Assembly (NCBI GenBank): GCA_000004985.1
Contig: GG738853.1
Direction: 5' to 3' (one strand)
Length of the DNA stretch: 64,000 bases
Source: Naegleria gruberi
Taxonomy: Eukaryota
Under the pieces are notes generated by a model that was given only the letters and a program-made list of their open reading frames with translations, ran no database searches and was not told where the DNA came from. A program made the translations under genes and the position numbers. Position 1 is the stretch's first letter. Each line of letters starts with the position of its first letter. This document shows positions 3,792-43,276 of the stretch, in pieces.

Positions 3792-4313
3792 TCAGTAAAC
3801 TTCGATAAGAACAGAAATATCAAAGAATGTGGAAGAGATAAGGTAGTTTAAACCCTTCTCAGCGTAAGAACTTGTAATACTACTCAATCCGCTTCTATGG
3901 AATAGGTTGAAAAATAGCAAAAGATAAACGCCACCAATATTTGTCAACTTGGTACAATCATCCTTGACGGTATAAAAAGAATCAACAATAGACTGTAAGT
4001 GCCTATGGGTTGGATTGTTTTCAAAATAACCAACCATTTCAAAACATGCTTTCAAAAATAAAAACTCCTCTTTGTATTTGCTTGTCTTGATATATTTCTC
4101 AAACTCTGTTTTAGCTTTGCCCAACCACTTCTCTTCTGGGTTTCTGTTGTGGTACACGCAAACAAACAAATAGGCAATAATGTAGCCAATAGAACTATCA
4201 TCAGAAAATTGTTGTGTGGAGAGATGATCGATGTTGTTCAACACTGTTGGGATCAATTGGTTGGTGAGTGGTTTTTCTGCAGCCGTTTTTATGTTTTGCA
4301 TAACTTGGTGCAT
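3792..4313 (-). CDS. hypothetical protein
   Basis: A 173-aa ORF whose GC content is higher than the flanking AT-rich spacer. No motif was recognised. Confidence 0.3.
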   Translation of the reverse strand: MHQVMQNIKTAAEKPLTNQLIPTVLNNIDHLSTQQFSDDSSIGYIIAYLFVCVYHNRNPEEKWLGKAKTEFEKYIKTSKYKEEFLFLKACFEMVGYFENNPTHRHLQSIVDSFYTVKDDCTKLTNIGGVYLLLFFNLFHRSGLSSITSSYAEKGLNYLISSTFFDISVLIEVY

Positions 4314-4902
4314 TTGTGAGGGTTAGATACTAAACATTTTTTTGAGGCAAGGTAAATTTTTATTTATTTTTCTTAACTAGGGTTAATTTTCCCAAACTGT
4401 TTACTTTTTATTCAAAACCTTATTGAAAATAAATTATTATTGAAAGTAAGCGATACCAACAACCACCCATTGTTAGAACCTAGTATTAAATTAATATGCT
4501 CTGAGTCTTTTCAACTGCGCCAAGACCCCGACACATTATCAACCTTAATTCTCAATTCTTAACTCAATAAACGCCTCTCCAAACAAAAAAACATAAATAA
4601 CAGTTGTTTGAAATCTTATTCTAAACCAAACTAATCCTTTATTAATACCACTAACAATCATTACAATTCGCCAACCAGCAAAAACAAAAAGGATAGCATA
4701 ATAAGAACTCCTCCAGTTGTTGCCTGAAAATATATCAATAAAATTAAATAAACTCCCAAAGAAATTGTAATCCTAGTGTTCAAGCCAAATTACACTCAAT
4801 ATGTAATGGTAAATAAGTCGGGTCCAAATTTCAGATTTAAAGGTTTTCAAGCTTGGAGATTGTTTTTGAGAAAATTTTAATAATCGTGAAAAAACTGGAA
4901 GT

Positions 4903-5829
4903 TTGGATTTTGGAACGTTAAAAAAAATGAATGCAAATATCAAGAGCCATTTAAACAATTTGAAAATTAATGTGTTGGATGATTGGGTGGATCAGTGTGT
5001 TCAATTTATCGGGATTGAAGAACCTCATCTACGATCCAATATCAATGGTATGAAAGAAGCAGTTTATCAACAATTTTTATGTTCCGATTATGATCAGTGT
5101 GCTATGAAACCTTCCCCAAACTTTAAATTATTTTCCAATATTGAAGAACAACATGGTCAGATATTGAATGGTCCTTTTGTTTTACAAATTAATGATATTT
5201 GGGATATTGGTATACCAACAACTGAACAAATTGATATGAAGGAATTAGTACCACAAAATAATGAAGATGTTGAAGAAGGAGAAGCCCTGTTTACTGATGC
5301 TCTTCAAACAGAAATTGTTGGATCTAAAGGAAAACGAGATTATACCAATTCATCATATAGTAGAAGAATGTTGAAATTTACTTTGAGTGATGGACATGTA
5401 AATAATATTCAAGCTGTAGAATATAAACCACTTGATAGCCTTTCTCTGAAAACTCCACTTGGATGTAAGATTAAATTAACAAAGGTTTTAGTGAGGAGAG
5501 GTATTTTACTTTTAATTCCAGAATGCATCTCAATTCTTGGTGGAAGTGTAGAAGAAATGATTGAGGCAAAGAAAGTATTCAAGACTAATTTAGCAGCTAA
5601 AAGAAGTGGAAAGTTGGATTTAAAGGAGAAAATAGAAGAGAATATTGCACGCCATCAAAATCAGCAAAATGTGGCAAGAAATAACACAAGTGTCATAAAT
5701 CAAGCACCTGTCTCTAATGTTAAACAAGAAGAGGAAGAATTAATGATGTTTGATGATGATGAAAATATCATTGAGGAATATGATGAAGAAGAAAGTTACA
5801 ATTCAGACACTAAAAGAACAAAGAGATAA
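4903..5829 (+). CDS. RMI1: RMI1-like protein (RecQ-mediated genome instability 1; DUF1767 plus OB-fold)
   Basis: The N-terminal 'LDDWVDQCVQFI' is DUF1767-like. The segment 'RRMLKFTLSDGHVNNIQAVEYKPLDSLSLKTPLGCKIKLTKVLVRRGILLLIPECISILGGSVEEM' matches the RMI1 OB-fold core (compare human 'MLKLTLTDGH..AVEYKPIPSLSL..PGTK..L.G...V..G.LLL......VLGGEVE'). It ends in an acidic/basic C-terminal tail. The real start may be the Met at 4927. Confidence 0.55.
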   Translation: MDFGTLKKMNANIKSHLNNLKINVLDDWVDQCVQFIGIEEPHLRSNINGMKEAVYQQFLCSDYDQCAMKPSPNFKLFSNIEEQHGQILNGPFVLQINDIWDIGIPTTEQIDMKELVPQNNEDVEEGEALFTDALQTEIVGSKGKRDYTNSSYSRRMLKFTLSDGHVNNIQAVEYKPLDSLSLKTPLGCKIKLTKVLVRRGILLLIPECISILGGSVEEMIEAKKVFKTNLAAKRSGKLDLKEKIEENIARHQNQQNVARNNTSVINQAPVSNVKQEEEELMMFDDDENIIEEYDEEESYNSDTKRTKR

Positions 5830-37988: not shown

Positions 37989-39545
37989 TTATTCAAAGTT
38001 AAAGTTGGTGTTGTTTTGTTGCATACCAGTAAACACGAATTGATTATTTTGTGTGGTTTGTGGTTCCTCATCATCATCATCAAGACCAAAGTATTCTTCT
38101 ACAATCTTGTATGCCTTCTTATAAATTTCTTCACTAGCGTGATCTGTCAAACTTTCAAGTTTATCAACACCTCCGGCTTCTTCAATAAAGTCTGTGTATG
38201 GATTGATACCATCAATATCATCAGCAATGCTTGAACCAGAAGCTAAAATATTTTCAATACCTTCCAAAGCAACGCCAACAACCTTGACATCCTTGACTGA
38301 GAGTAATTCGCAAAGTGGTTTAATACAACCTCTATCTACTAAATATCTTATTTGTTCATCTGAACCTCCTGATGTAGCGTTAGAAATAGCCCAAGCAGCT
38401 TCCTTCTTAACGTCAAAATCACCTGGTTGATCCAAGATTGCCACCAAAGGTGGAATAATATTAGCATCAATAATTGTTTGAATTTGATCCTTGTTTCCGG
38501 CAGTAATGTTAGAAATTGTCCAACAAGCTTCCTTCTTAATACTCTTCTTTTGATGTTGAAGAAGTTGACACAAAGATGGAAGAGCGCCACAATTCAAAAC
38601 GACTTGTGTTTGTTGATCATTACCAGTAACAATATTACCAATAGTTCTCAAGGCTGGTGTTTGAACGGATGGTTGTGGATGCATAAGTAATTCAACAAGT
38701 CTTCTAACAACATTTGAATCAATAACAGCTTGAATTCTATTGTTTGGACCGTCTGAGAGGTATGAAATTGCCCAACAAGCGTCAGTAAGAACTTCTTCGT
38801 CAGAGTTGTATAAGAGATGAGCCAAAGTTGGCAAGGCTGGAGCAACAAGATTAAAATCAGGGATTGGTTTACCTCTACAAAGGTTGGAAACAGTCCATGT
38901 AGCATTTCTGAGAATTGTAACTTTTGGTTGTTCAGAAATGATAGACAACAATGGAACCATAACTCCCATTTGTAAAATATAATCTCTACATTTAGCAGAA
39001 TCACCAGCAATATTACCCAAAGCCCAGATAGATTGTTCTCTAACATCATCATTTGGACATCCGAGAAGTTGAATAAAGATTGGAACAGCATTGCTTCTAA
39101 TGACTGTTTCAGTATGTTCGGAGGTACCTGAAGCAATGTTTGTGAGGGCCCAACAGGCTTCAAATTGGAGGGCAGCGTGGTCGACTCTTTGCAAAAATTC
39201 AACAAAGATTGGGACAACACCAGTAGAAATAACTTCATCGATAGGTGGACTCTTTTCCATGGACAAGAGTTTTCTGAATTGAACGGTAGCTTCTAATTGG
39301 AGTGTTGGATTACCAGACTTGACTTGTTCGAGAAGGAGTGGAAGTTGGTTAAGTTTTTCTTGGATGAGAGGATCGTGAATTGTTGCGCCTGTTGTGTTTT
39401 CCTTTCTTCTCTTTTGCAAGAGTTCATCTCTCATCTTCTTTCTGAGAGATGATTGTTTATCCATTCTCTTTATTTTACCATCTTCTGCGCTGAGTGTTGA
39501 CTTTAGGTTTTTTCTAGTTGGTGTCTTTTGATTGCTGGAGTACAT
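37989..39545 (-). CDS. KPNA: importin subunit alpha (karyopherin alpha), canonical form, single exon
   Basis: It has an N-terminal IBB domain ('RMDKQSSLRKKMRDELLQKRRKE') and ten armadillo repeats carrying the conserved Trp/Asn NLS-binding residues ('LQFEACWALTNIASG', 'EQSIWALGNIAGD', 'RNATWTVSNLCRG', 'TDACWAISYLSDG', 'KEACWTISNITAG', 'KEAAWAISNATSGG'). The C-terminus is acidic. Confidence 0.85.
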   Translation of the reverse strand: MYSSNQKTPTRKNLKSTLSAEDGKIKRMDKQSSLRKKMRDELLQKRRKENTTGATIHDPLIQEKLNQLPLLLEQVKSGNPTLQLEATVQFRKLLSMEKSPPIDEVISTGVVPIFVEFLQRVDHAALQFEACWALTNIASGTSEHTETVIRSNAVPIFIQLLGCPNDDVREQSIWALGNIAGDSAKCRDYILQMGVMVPLLSIISEQPKVTILRNATWTVSNLCRGKPIPDFNLVAPALPTLAHLLYNSDEEVLTDACWAISYLSDGPNNRIQAVIDSNVVRRLVELLMHPQPSVQTPALRTIGNIVTGNDQQTQVVLNCGALPSLCQLLQHQKKSIKKEACWTISNITAGNKDQIQTIIDANIIPPLVAILDQPGDFDVKKEAAWAISNATSGGSDEQIRYLVDRGCIKPLCELLSVKDVKVVGVALEGIENILASGSSIADDIDGINPYTDFIEEAGGVDKLESLTDHASEEIYKKAYKIVEEYFGLDDDDEEPQTTQNNQFVFTGMQQNNTNFNFE

Positions 39546-41264: not shown

Positions 41265-42566
41265 ATGGCAACTCTCACACAAGCAATACAAGAAGACACC
41301 ACAACAGATATCAAATCCGCTTGCAGTAATGCAACAACTCACCCTCATCATCAGCATTCCAATGAAGCTACAAAGAGCACGTCTCTGAACAAAACCAATA
41401 ATATTACCATCAAAGAAAATGAAACGATGAGTCTCAAGGAAGTCTCAAGTTTTTCAGTGATGGAGGGAATAAGTTTACAGCAACAACAAAACGGAACCCA
41501 ACATCAACAACATCAGCATAGCACGAGTACTTCTTCTTGTTGTTCAACATCATCGATAGAAAATTCAACAACACAAGATGATGATCAACATACAAAAGAG
41601 GATATTATTTCAAATAGTAATTTATTATCAAAGAAAATTATTGAATCATTGAATGATTCGAAATGTAATATAGAAAAGAGTAACGGAACATCTAAAGTTT
41701 TAATCTATTTAATTATCGGAATTTTTGTAGTTTTAATTTCTTATTTATTAATGATGAATGGGAGCAGTTTACTTCATCATGTTATCAATTTATCAATACC
41801 ATCAACAACAGCAGCTATTGCAAAATCTACAGACACTAATTTATTGAATAACGCAGTAACAGAAAAAGCAAATGTTACTAAAAAGAAGGAAAAAAAGAAT
41901 AAGATTAATATTCTTTCTGGATTGTATAAACCTGAAACTTATGGTATTGCTAAATATATTAAGCCATTAGAACCCAAGACAAGAATAATGGGAAGAAGAG
42001 AAATGTAAGTTTACAATATTAGATCAGTAATTTACCATTTTAGGATTAATTTTCCTCAACTTGGAGTTATTAATTTATTAGCAAAGGTAGATTCAGGTGC
42101 CAAGACAAGTTGTCTGGACGTGGCTAATATCAGATATAACAAGGCAGCAAAGACTATTAGTTTTGATGTTGTACTTGACAGACACAATAGAAGTATTGTT
42201 CAAACAATTCTTGATTTCCCATTTTCTAATACGACAAAAACTGTAATGTCTTCCAATGGACATATTTCGACACGTTATGTTTTGAAAACTATTGTTACAA
42301 TTGGTCCTGAATTCCAAGATCAAGTTGCAGAATTCACTCTTGTTGAAAGACACAAGCTTGCATGTCCTGTTTTAATTGGTAGAAATATTATTAGAATGGG
42401 AGGCTTTTTAGTTGACTGCAATAAGAAATTTATTACTGGTAAGAAACAGACAACTGTTGTAAAGGAGCCAATTCACATCCCTAACTTGTTGGACTATCCT
42501 ATTCCTTCACCTCCTAAAAAGAAGTCAAAGAAAAAGAAAATCAAGACTCCTGAGAAAAAGCAATAG
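41265..42566 (+). CDS. membrane-anchored retropepsin-like aspartic protease; 2 exons, join(41265..42004, 42044..42566), about 420 aa
   Basis: Exon 1 is S/T/Q/N-rich with one transmembrane helix ('VLIYLIIGIFVVLISYLLMM'). Exon 2 reads 'INFPQLGVINLLAKVDSGAKTSCLDVANI...SSNGHISTRYVLKTIVTIG...EFTLVERHKLACPVLIGRNIIRMGGFLVD', then a K-rich tail. It has the D-S-G-A catalytic motif and the C-terminal 'LIGR' dimerisation/flap motif of retropepsins. The spacing and flanking residues resemble the bacterial RimK-associated 'putative ATP-dependent zinc protease' (PF05618/DUF785-type) fold more than DDI1. A 39-nt intron (GTAAGT...TTTTAG) joins the exons in frame. Confidence 0.5.
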
Positions 42567-42568
42567 TA

Positions 42569-43276
42569 TCAATTTAATAAATAGTCAAGTGCCATGTCAA
42601 AATTGCCATTGGCTTTTTTGAGTGCATTCTTGATTACATTCATATCAGTAATCATTGGAAAGAAATCCTTAATCCAATTTGCATTATATTCATCAAGATC
42701 AACTGAAGATTCCTCAATCTGAAGAGTCTTCTTTTCAAATTCTATCAAATGACGAATGAACCCATAATTTGGTGAGATGGCTTTTCTTCTTTCTTTAACA
42801 TAGGAAATTGTATCTTTGAGATTTGTTCTGAAATGATCTAATATGAAAGAAATAACCATTGAGCTAGATCTGGAAATTCCTGCTTGACAATGAACCAAAA
42901 CACAACCTTTCTCTTCCAAACATTGTTTGAGAAATTCTAATGCATCAGGGATATGAGCAATAAGATTTTCATTAGGAGAATCATCAATTGAAATCTTTCT
43001 ACATTTGAGAGTCAGTACATGTTTGGTTTTAATTTCATTGGTTACATTCAAAATGTGAGTAATTCCCTTTTCCTCTTTTAAAAATTGAACATCCAACTCT
43101 GCTGAATAGTGTGGCCCTAAATATAAGAAAGGATGACCATGGGTATCAGCACCATCTTTAATAAATTGTATTTTACTTTTATCTTGATCGGAGTAGGAGA
43201 GAATGAGATTTGCTGAGAAGGAACCACAATCTGACATTTTTTTTGAACTTGATTCTTTTAATAGTTTGGCCAACAA
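42569..43276 (-). CDS. dual-specificity protein phosphatase (DUSP) with a C-terminal UBA/CUE-like helix bundle
   Basis: The catalytic P-loop 'VLVHCQAGISRSSSMVISFIL' (HCxxGxxRS) is present, with an upstream 'DDSPNENL' general-acid region. The C-terminal 'NVIKNALKKANGNFDMALDYLLN' is UBA-like. Confidence 0.7.
   Translation of the reverse strand: MLAKLLKESSSKKMSDCGSFSANLILSYSDQDKSKIQFIKDGADTHGHPFLYLGPHYSAELDVQFLKEEKGITHILNVTNEIKTKHVLTLKCRKISIDDSPNENLIAHIPDALEFLKQCLEEKGCVLVHCQAGISRSSSMVISFILDHFRTNLKDTISYVKERRKAISPNYGFIRHLIEFEKKTLQIEESSVDLDEYNANWIKDFFPMITDMNVIKNALKKANGNFDMALDYLLN

Follow-up and report, generated by a model that had tools for sequence, protein, structure and literature searches.

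Here we analyse a gene in a 64,000-nucleotide stretch of the Naegleria gruberi genome (contig GG738853.1 of assembly GCA_000004985.1, referred to as the window), which encodes a protein with a protease domain of the RimB/RloA type. We read the product as a protein that crosses the membrane once and in which the C-terminal 140 residues constitute a RimB-family retropepsin-like aspartic protease, and assign this reading a probability of about 0.6. The gene consists of two exons, with coordinates read from the window sequence (Table 1). Its spliced coding sequence of 1263 nt yields a protein of 420 residues. An open frame of 247 codons is expected by chance with p ~3e-9 at the base composition of the window. 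The translation is identical, residue for residue, to the 420-residue product of NAEGRDRAFT_64219 (XP_002680463.1, UniProt D2V5V8; P0158 in our set), which is annotated as "predicted protein".

A preliminary description of the region, made from the nucleotide sequence without database searches, had proposed this exon and intron layout for positions 41265-42566. The coordinates are exact, and the model coincides with the published N. gruberi annotation. All motifs listed at that stage (DSGA, SSNG, ACPVLIGRN, the hydrophobic helix and the Lys-rich tail) are present in the translation, while the distance between the catalytic Asp and the second motif, given as about 100 residues, was measured as ~90. 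A full-text literature search found the gene identifiers named in no paper and, as judged by titles and abstracts, nothing that links Naegleria to the PF05618 family. The gene is genuine and already present in the databases, and it is uncharacterised.

Table 1 Position of the retropepsin gene, its encoded features and the neighbouring genes in the window
Feature	Position	Strand	Remarks
Exon 1	41265..42004	+	ATG at 41265; aa 1-246 plus 2 nt of codon 247; encodes the Ser/Thr/Gln/Asn-rich N-terminal region, membrane helix, stalk, polybasic block and first protease-domain residues
Single predicted transmembrane helix VLIYLIIGIFVVLISYLLMM	41697..41756	+	aa 145-164, 20 residues
Polybasic block KKKEKKNK	41880..41903	+	aa 206-213, between stalk and protease domain
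RimB-like retropepsin domain (PF05618)	41985..42443	+	aa 241-380, interrupted by the intron
Intron	42005..42043	+	39 nt, GTAAGT...TTTTAG; phase 2 (codon split into AT and G); in-frame TAA
Exon 2	42044..42566	+	aa 247-420; TAG stop at 42564-42566
K261	42084-42086	+	two residues before the catalytic Asp
Catalytic motif D263-S-G-A266	42090..42101	+	aligns with DTGA of RloA 9g58
Flap-region motif SSNGHISTR	42249..42275	+	aa 316-324; SSNG at 316-319; ends in the family-invariant R324
R349 (VER motif) and ACPVLIGRN	42348..42386	+	ACPVLIGRN at aa 353-361; retropepsin-type GRN motif
Lys-rich C-terminal tail KKKSKKKKIKTPEKKQ	42516..42563	+	aa 405-420
Uninterrupted open reading frame, 1512 aa	18377-22915	+	
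Uninterrupted open reading frame, 4214 aa	25007-37651	+	
Importin-alpha gene	37992-39545	-	within ~7 kb of the locus
Dual-specificity phosphatase gene (DSPc, 113 bits)	42569-43276	-	convergent on the retropepsin gene
Importin-alpha gene	44414-46195	-	within ~7 kb of the locus

Family and fold of the protease domain

When the full 420 residues are searched against Pfam, the protein scores 54.5 bits with PF05618 (E = 1.5e-14; the cut-off is 27 bits), and the match spans profile positions 1-137 of 138. The RVP, DDI1, gag-type and Asp_protease models (PF00077, PF09668, PF13650, PF13975) give no match at E <= 1 in the same search. The best NCBIfam model is RimB (NF052261) with 70.9 bits, which does not reach its equivalog cut-off of 200. 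The RloA1, RloA2 and RloA3 models score 27.4, 31.7 and 37.8 bits, compared with cut-offs of 280, 250 and 210. Since these scores lie far below the equivalog cut-offs, the protein is a divergent member of the family and an equivalog of neither RimB nor RloA.

The exon-2 product was modelled with AlphaFold2 from 53 aligned sequences; the first ~6 residues of the domain are encoded by exon 1 and are not included in the model. The mean predicted local distance difference test score (pLDDT) is 88 and the predicted TM-score (pTM) is 0.78. In a Foldseek comparison with the PDB, the top three matches are the Legionella DUF785 protein Lpg0085 (2pma), Pseudomonas fluorescens RloA (9g58) and P. aeruginosa RloA2 (9g59), all with E ~1e-4, a probability of 1.00 and target-normalised TM-scores of 0.52-0.65. 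The RVP domains of DDI1 and the protease of equine infectious anaemia virus come next, at E 0.03 or weaker. By sequence, motifs and fold, the domain is of the PF05618 RimB/RloA type and not of the DDI1/RVP type. This agrees with the initial assignment to PF05618/DUF785 over the DDI1/SASPase type: PF05618 is the sole Pfam match at E <= 1, RimB is the best NCBIfam model, and the DUF785/RloA folds rank ahead of DDI1. The possibility raised with that assignment, that DDI1 or RVP models would score best, failed in the Pfam search.

All residues that are invariant in the 53-sequence alignment are kept in the Naegleria protein: D16, G18, A19, D25, F40, R77, L99, R102, G112 and R113 in exon-2 numbering, to which 247 is added to obtain the full-protein numbering. 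S69, S70, N71 and G72 of the same alignment are nearly invariant. Several of the conserved positions correspond to residues with a described role in RloA, where K46, R92, R114 and R137 form symmetric contacts with the substrate. The R114A and R137A mutations have the strongest effect on activity, and R114 of the P. aeruginosa enzyme is required for poly-glutamate cleavage. In the alignment to 9g58, K46 of RloA corresponds to K261, while R324 and R349 align with R94 and R117 of the P. fluorescens enzyme, the counterparts of R114 and R137 in P. aeruginosa; the P. fluorescens chain has equal spacing from the catalytic Asp (+66, +89). R324 and R349 are invariant among the 53 sequences and K261 is nearly so. 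Three Cys residues are conserved (C270, C354 and C372), and a disulfide pair has been described for RloA. As C354 is also kept in RimK-linked, presumably cytoplasmic bacterial relatives, it provides no evidence for a disulfide here.

Membrane helix and topology

The predicted helix has a Kyte-Doolittle mean of 2.89 over 19 residues, in line with the single transmembrane helix that had been proposed for the S/T/Q-rich exon. The N. gruberi protein has no cleavable signal peptide and carries this internal signal-anchor helix instead. Three Lys residues flank the helix on the N-side and none on the C-side. The flanks are likewise positive on the N-side and neutral or acidic on the C-side in Willaertia P0002 and in another Naegleria species (L089, read from the exon-1 translation), and the flank-charge pattern of the N-terminal hydrophobic segment of P0011, which belongs to another eukaryotic lineage, is alike. 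These charges predict a type II orientation, in which the protease domain would lie in a lumen or outside the cell. Insertion in this manner, which would place the domain outside the cytoplasm, is on balance the probable arrangement.

The combination of helix, low-complexity stalk and polybasic block is present in N. gruberi, Naegleria sp. L089 and Willaertia P0002. Comparable polybasic blocks lie ahead of the domain in L089 (RIKKKRKKK), in Willaertia (KIRRKNKKKKKKFKFGK) and in N. lovaniensis. The gene models of N. lovaniensis and N. fowleri lack both the membrane helix and a signal peptide, as does P0009, a Willaertia paralogue of 175 aa. The absence of the helix from some orthologues indicates that the anchor is recurrent and not universal. 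The fusion to a membrane-targeting module, as first described, thus applies to the former three proteins and not to the models and the paralogue. The N-terminal regions are barely alignable, with 32% identity over the aligned columns and low-complexity sequence. In the other eukaryotic lineage, P0156 has a typical cleavable-looking signal peptide, and P0011 has a signal sequence as well as a C-terminal membrane segment.

The Lys-rich tail had been taken as an argument against bacterial contamination, but it is not a mark of eukaryotic genes. Among bacterial relatives with a complete domain, 186 of 247 have a tail of at least 8 residues, and the median Lys+Arg fraction of those tails is 0.36, compared with 0.19 over the whole proteins. 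Basic tails are therefore common in bacterial relatives, and the tail is not a eukaryotic addition. The RimK that adjoins the gene of the bacterial relative P0012 (L085 1559-2758) also has a Lys-rich end (EKKRPKKKLPGSKKG), so both partners are basic at the C-terminus.

The main alternative, in our view doubtful, is that the same chemistry takes place with the domain facing the cytosol or the nucleus, through insertion with the N-terminus out or through release from the membrane. The polybasic flanks would then act as nuclear-localisation or acidic-lipid-binding signals, and the enzyme would trim cytosolic poly-glutamate, for example on polyglutamylated proteins. Such a location would be in keeping with the closest prokaryotic relatives, which are cytoplasmic, RimK-partnered RimB proteins, and with the N. 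lovaniensis and N. fowleri models and Willaertia P0009, which have neither a signal nor a membrane segment. The Naegleria orthologues and Willaertia P0002 carry polybasic blocks next to the domain, as this arrangement would suggest. The N-terminal 144 residues contain eight N-x-S/T sequons, as in an extracellular mucin-like region; however, sequons are expected by chance in a sequence rich in Asn, Ser and Thr. The flank charges in N. gruberi, Willaertia P0002 and L089 favour an N-terminus inside the cell, and the sister eukaryotic proteins P0156 and P0011 bear N-terminal signal sequences. In addition, translocation of a 144-residue N-terminal region across the membrane in the absence of a signal peptide is uncommon.

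Several points count against an anchored, extracytoplasmic protease with the substrate and the history that we propose for it. The topology call is made from hydropathy and flanking charge alone, which is crude. The anchored layout is not universal, and orthologues with 78% identical domains would occupy different compartments. Flanks as strongly polybasic as these are seen more typically in proteins of the cytosol or nucleus than in luminal ones, and the nearest prokaryotic relatives are the cytoplasmic RimB proteins and not the secreted RloA. Regarding specificity, the RimB score of 70.9 bits against a cut-off of 200 means that specificity identical to that of RimB cannot be assumed. The fourth poly-glutamate contact of RloA, R92, corresponds to Asp in the Naegleria protein in the alignment to 9g58, and to Ala in RimB. 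Regarding the origin of the gene, the domain tree is weak, with 69% support for a single eukaryotic clade from 141 columns and the donor not resolved.

Conservation and origin

The same codon is interrupted in the same phase in seven heterolobosean loci from at least 5 genomes, within the motif GR.E-AT-G/T-I.FP, where the intron follows AT. The intron measures 39 nt in the window, 47 nt in a strain 95% identical to N. gruberi (L088), 47 nt in another Naegleria species (L089), 97 nt in N. lovaniensis (L001), 84 nt in N. fowleri (L084), 84 nt in Willaertia magna (L002) and ~41 nt in a second Willaertia paralogue (L091). The intron sequences are unrelated between loci, while the flanking exons are conserved. 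The PF05618 match begins in exon 1 and crosses the junction, which supports the splice independently. The proposed 39-nt GTAAGT..AG intron is thus confirmed by six other heterolobosean loci that keep its site and phase. Because all seven loci share them, the intron predates the split between Naegleria and Willaertia as well as the Willaertia duplication; judged by these alignments, it is real and old.

We also considered the 39-nt segment as coding sequence under a ciliate code, in which TAA is read as Gln. The homologous segments in L088, L089 and L001 have lengths of 47, 47 and 97 nt, none of them divisible by 3, and this possibility was rejected. Ciliate-code read-through is also ruled out by the standard stop codons at the end of both convergent genes and by the organism being Naegleria.

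The protease domain is under strong purifying selection. Between the window and L088, the ratio of non-synonymous to synonymous substitution rates (dN/dS) of the domain is 0.03, with 38 synonymous and 6 non-synonymous differences. The corresponding values are ~0.35 for the stalk and ~0.13 for the C-terminal tail. A non-proteolytic role, in which the domain is kept for binding or as a scaffold and catalysis is dispensable, would have a parallel in RimB, which stimulates RimK without need of its protease activity. RimB is described as bifunctional, with a stimulation of RimK that is independent of ribosomal modification. We consider such a role very unlikely for the Naegleria protein, which retains DSGA, GRN and every family-invariant residue. 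The dN/dS of 0.03 fits an intact active site, and no RimK that could be stimulated lies nearby in the window or at the four eukaryotic loci searched.

A second intron, located between RMG(G/E) and FLVD, is found in N. lovaniensis (L001), N. fowleri (L084) and, it seems, in the species from which P0006 comes. N. gruberi and Willaertia do not have it, which indicates a lineage-specific gain or loss. The N. fowleri gene model FDP41_005628 (L084, gene 4001-5129) looks chimeric and mis-called, as it joins a BRCT gene to the RimB-like gene over in-frame stop codons. The true C-terminal segments of the N. fowleri protein, QVAEFTLMERHKLSCPVLIGRNILRLGG and FLIDCNKKFVNGKK, are located in other reading frames of L084. 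In N. lovaniensis, the conserved tail KE.I.IPN...PPKKKGKKTNKKK at L001 ~5050-5250 is off-frame from the annotated C-terminus of C9374_002606, which suggests either a frameshift in the assembly or an error of annotation.

A profile search run exhaustively on 1.84 billion representative proteins gave 1470 matches. Heteroloboseans rank at the top, followed by P0011 and P0010 from the other eukaryotic lineage and then by the bulk of bacterial proteins; the P0010 cluster also includes P0156, which is longer. Above the bacterial bulk, the eukaryotic matches are limited to heteroloboseans and this one other lineage. Word-indexed searches, whether made with the whole protein or with just its domain, reached only relatives from Naegleria and Willaertia; it took the exhaustive profile search to arrive at bacterial proteins. 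A second profile search returned 5219 proteins at E <= 1e-8. It was biased towards bacterial query sequences and did not list the eukaryotic members, which makes it uninformative on further named eukaryotes. Among its best 120 proteins, the named ones are all bacterial, mostly from Verrucomicrobiota (Opitutales, Puniceicoccaceae), with 36-43% identity. A genome scan gave taxonomically scattered relatives of similar identity. A metagenome scan with a eukaryote-only profile returned, among the at least 600 matches listed, bacterial RimB-RimK loci at up to 40% identity and no new eukaryotes.

The closest prokaryotic relatives are stand-alone RimB genes with 30-43% identity to the Naegleria domain. 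A rimK gene is adjacent in 74 of the 80 best bacterial and archaeal genome loci and in 67 of the 80 best metagenome loci, and rimK adjoins the gene of the close bacterial relative P0012. The search for a RimK/ATP-grasp partner, suggested in the preliminary description, had a negative outcome in the sequence covered. A RimK query gave no match in the 64-kb window (tblastn and phmmer, E <= 10). With tblastn at E <= 1e-5, nothing was found in the flanks of L001, L002, L003 and L084, a search that covers these flanks and not the whole genomes. RloB and RloC queries in tblastn found nothing in the window or in the same four loci, whereas the positive control L087 has both genes.

Some relatives of the domain occur in other contexts. 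An intron-less eukaryotic RimB-like gene with a signal peptide is located beside Tim17 in two contigs (L003 2665-3579 and L092 197-856), and was found in the JGI metagenomes 3300062347 and 3300061725 and in the NCBI assembly GCA_041825655.1. On the contig of P0011 there are also genes for Tim17, filamin, CH-domain and LBP/BPI proteins, and Tim17 adjoins the gene in the P0156 contigs. Among the bacterial proteins P0046, P0026, P0040 and P0004, the architectures read from sequence include a fusion of a carbohydrate-kinase-like N-terminal domain to RimB. Another relative has a helix-turn-helix-like N-terminal region fused to RimB, also read from sequence, and a third combines a signal peptide, the RimB domain and a long, membrane-spanning C-terminal region. 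P0004 (L087) is a lipoprotein RloA with a coiled-coil-like linker, encoded inside an rloABC operon.

A neighbour-joining tree of 148 domains (141 columns, 200 bootstraps) recovers Heterolobosea with 95.5% support, the two other eukaryotic proteins with 100% and all six eukaryotic sequences together with 69%. No bacterial sister group was resolved in this tree. An ancient bacterial origin of the domain is supported by these comparisons, and the donor cannot be named. It is suggested by the rimK-linked RimB genes as the closest prokaryotic relatives and by the lack of rimK near the eukaryotic copies tested. With more than 5000 prokaryotic members and few, clustered eukaryotic copies, bacterial ancestry followed by intron gain is the simplest explanation, as had been anticipated in the proposal of an ancient horizontal acquisition. 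We infer the direction of transfer and a single origin; one transfer may also account for the copies in the other eukaryote (P0011, P0010/P0156).

The family might instead be ancestral in eukaryotes, having been present in their last common ancestor, passed on vertically and lost nearly everywhere. The six eukaryotic sequences forming one clade (69%), the age of the intron and the lack of a specific bacterial donor, with best identities of 36-43%, would all be expected in this case. We nevertheless find it highly improbable. Above the bacterial bulk, the 1.84 billion representatives gave only heteroloboseans and one other eukaryotic lineage, while the prokaryotic members number more than 5000 at E below 1e-8 and share a coherent rimK operon context. 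The remaining explanation, an artefact of bacterial contamination, mis-assembly or descent from a retroelement- or DDI1-derived retropepsin, has the bacterial domain type as the sole point in its favour and is refuted by the spliceosomal intron conserved in seven loci of at least 5 genomes, the eukaryotic flanking genes, the G+C content of the gene, which at 33% is like that of the rest of the window, the lack of any RVP, DDI1 or gag-type Pfam match at E <= 1, and the ranking of DDI1 folds below DUF785/RloA. The early argument against contamination therefore stands on the eukaryotic neighbours, the intron common to Naegleria and Willaertia, and the presence of the gene in the published annotation.

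The retropepsin gene lies between a pair of importin-alpha genes. One of them is complete, with an importin-beta-binding (IBB) region and armadillo (Arm) repeats; the other consists of two Arm-repeat open reading frames, probably representing one gene split by an intron. The stop codons of the retropepsin gene and of the convergent phosphatase gene (42566 and 42569) are separated by 2 nt only, which shows how compact the genome is. A PAP2 phosphatase gene is also found in the neighbourhood.

Proposed mechanism and relation to known proteases

The two branches of the family that have been characterised, RimB and RloA, consist of homodimeric endopeptidases that depend on Asp and cleave stretches of consecutive glutamates. 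Cleavage by RimB needs ~6 or more glutamates, and RloA needs 8 or more. In crystals, RloA is dimeric, and the aspartate dyad is located where the two chains meet; it cleaves poly-glutamate and is secreted. We propose that a rimB-type gene from a bacterium with a rimB-rimK pair entered the ancestor of the vahlkampfiid heteroloboseans. The link to RimK would then have been lost, and the phase-2 intron would have been gained, close to the 5' end of the region that encodes the domain, by the time Naegleria and Willaertia separated. Several lineages may subsequently have acquired an N-terminal signal-anchor helix and then a low-complexity stalk.

In the N. gruberi protein, the helix formed by residues 145-164 would insert with the N-terminus in the cytosol (type II), leaving the protease domain, together with the stalk and the polybasic blocks, in the secretory or endocytic lumen or on the cell surface. 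A location outside the cytoplasm would also fit the secreted RloA relatives, the lipoprotein P0004 and the signal peptide of P0156. Two copies would pair as in the RloA crystal dimers, bringing together both D263 residues to form the catalytic dyad. Family membership, with the RloA crystals and the model of RimB as guides, makes such a homodimer quite likely. The basic channel formed by K261, R324 and R349 would take up glutamate runs or similar acidic stretches, and the basic flanks may contribute to their capture. The retained residues lend good support to catalytic competence, and the enzyme is probably active. The conservation of the counterparts of the poly-glutamate-binding residues of RloA and RimB speaks for a preference for glutamate runs, as does published work on the specificity of RimB; cleavage of poly-glutamate-like acidic stretches is, by analogy, a tentative assignment that we place somewhat short of even.

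RimB of P. fluorescens (PFLU_0262) belongs to the same PF05618 family and provides the best NCBIfam model. It shares with the Naegleria protein the D-[TS]-G-A motif, the Lys/Arg counterparts of the poly-glutamate channel and a ~140-aa domain with a basic C-terminal tail, and the rimK-linked RimB genes are the nearest prokaryotic relatives of the Naegleria domain. In contrast to RimB, the Naegleria gene is eukaryotic, contains an intron and has no adjacent rimK, and its product is extended at the N-terminus by 240 aa that include a membrane helix. The protein also stays below the RimB cut-off (70.9 against 200 bits) and is 30-43% identical to bacterial members, and poly-glutamate cleavage is here predicted only.

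The closest solved folds are those of RloA, RloA2 and RloA3 from Pseudomonas (9g58, 9g59) and of Lpg0085 (2pma). RloA is a secreted osmotic-stress peptidase, encoded together with an inactive transglutaminase (rloB) and an ATP-grasp protein (rloC), and the Naegleria domain is likewise predicted to reside outside the cytoplasm. Tethering to a membrane occurs within the family, as the lipoprotein-anchored P0004 illustrates. The Naegleria protein differs from RloA in its low scores (27-38 bits, compared with cut-offs of 210-280) and in the lack of an rloB/rloC context. Its anchor is a eukaryotic signal-anchor helix and not a Sec signal peptide or a lipobox.

A similar architectural logic is found in APRc (RC1339) of Rickettsia, in which N-terminal membrane helices precede an outward-facing, C-terminal retropepsin domain that is active as a dimer and processes itself. 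APRc, however, belongs to a retropepsin family other than PF05618, has three membrane helices, is a bacterial outer-membrane protein and has no poly-glutamate specificity. With APRc, the secreted RloA and the lipoprotein RloA P0004 as precedents, a membrane-tethered retropepsin is not new in principle, contrary to the novelty that had been claimed for this arrangement. The RVP domains of DDI1 and SASPase (ASPRV1) share the retropepsin half-barrel fold and the D-[ST]-G-A motif, present as DSGA in the Naegleria protein, and ASPRV1 is annotated as a membrane protein. Unlike DDI1, the Naegleria protein has neither UBL nor UBA domains, and it has a different evolutionary origin. It has no RVP, DDI1 or Asp_protease Pfam match at E <= 1, and its fold match to DDI1 is 100-1000 times weaker than that to DUF785/RloA.

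The domain itself and membrane-tethered or secreted retropepsins are already known. What is new is a eukaryotic, intron-bearing, RimK-less and signal-anchored member of the RimB lineage that is conserved across vahlkampfiid amoebae. The widest interpretation is that heterolobosean amoebae domesticated a RimB poly-glutamate endopeptidase as a RimK-free, membrane-tethered enzyme, the first eukaryotic deglutamylase of the aspartic type. We regard this as unlikely. If true, the enzyme would have as its substrates forms of poly-glutamate beyond the reach of the known metallo-carboxypeptidase deglutamylases; polyglutamylated proteins of the host, or bacterial poly-glutamate encountered in phagocytosis, would be the candidates.

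That RimB and RloA are retropepsin-like proteases which cleave poly-glutamate was recognised only in 2025, and in bacteria only. A conserved member in free-living amoebae, among them the lineage to which the pathogen N. fowleri belongs, indicates that the fold has been taken up by eukaryotes, and raises the question of an aspartic endopeptidase for poly-glutamate in a eukaryote. It adds a dated example of a transfer from bacteria to a eukaryote that was followed by intron gain. Provided that the enzyme is active, as its conserved residues suggest, the Naegleria case would mean that the fold can work without an ATP-grasp partner and can be re-targeted by a eukaryotic signal anchor.

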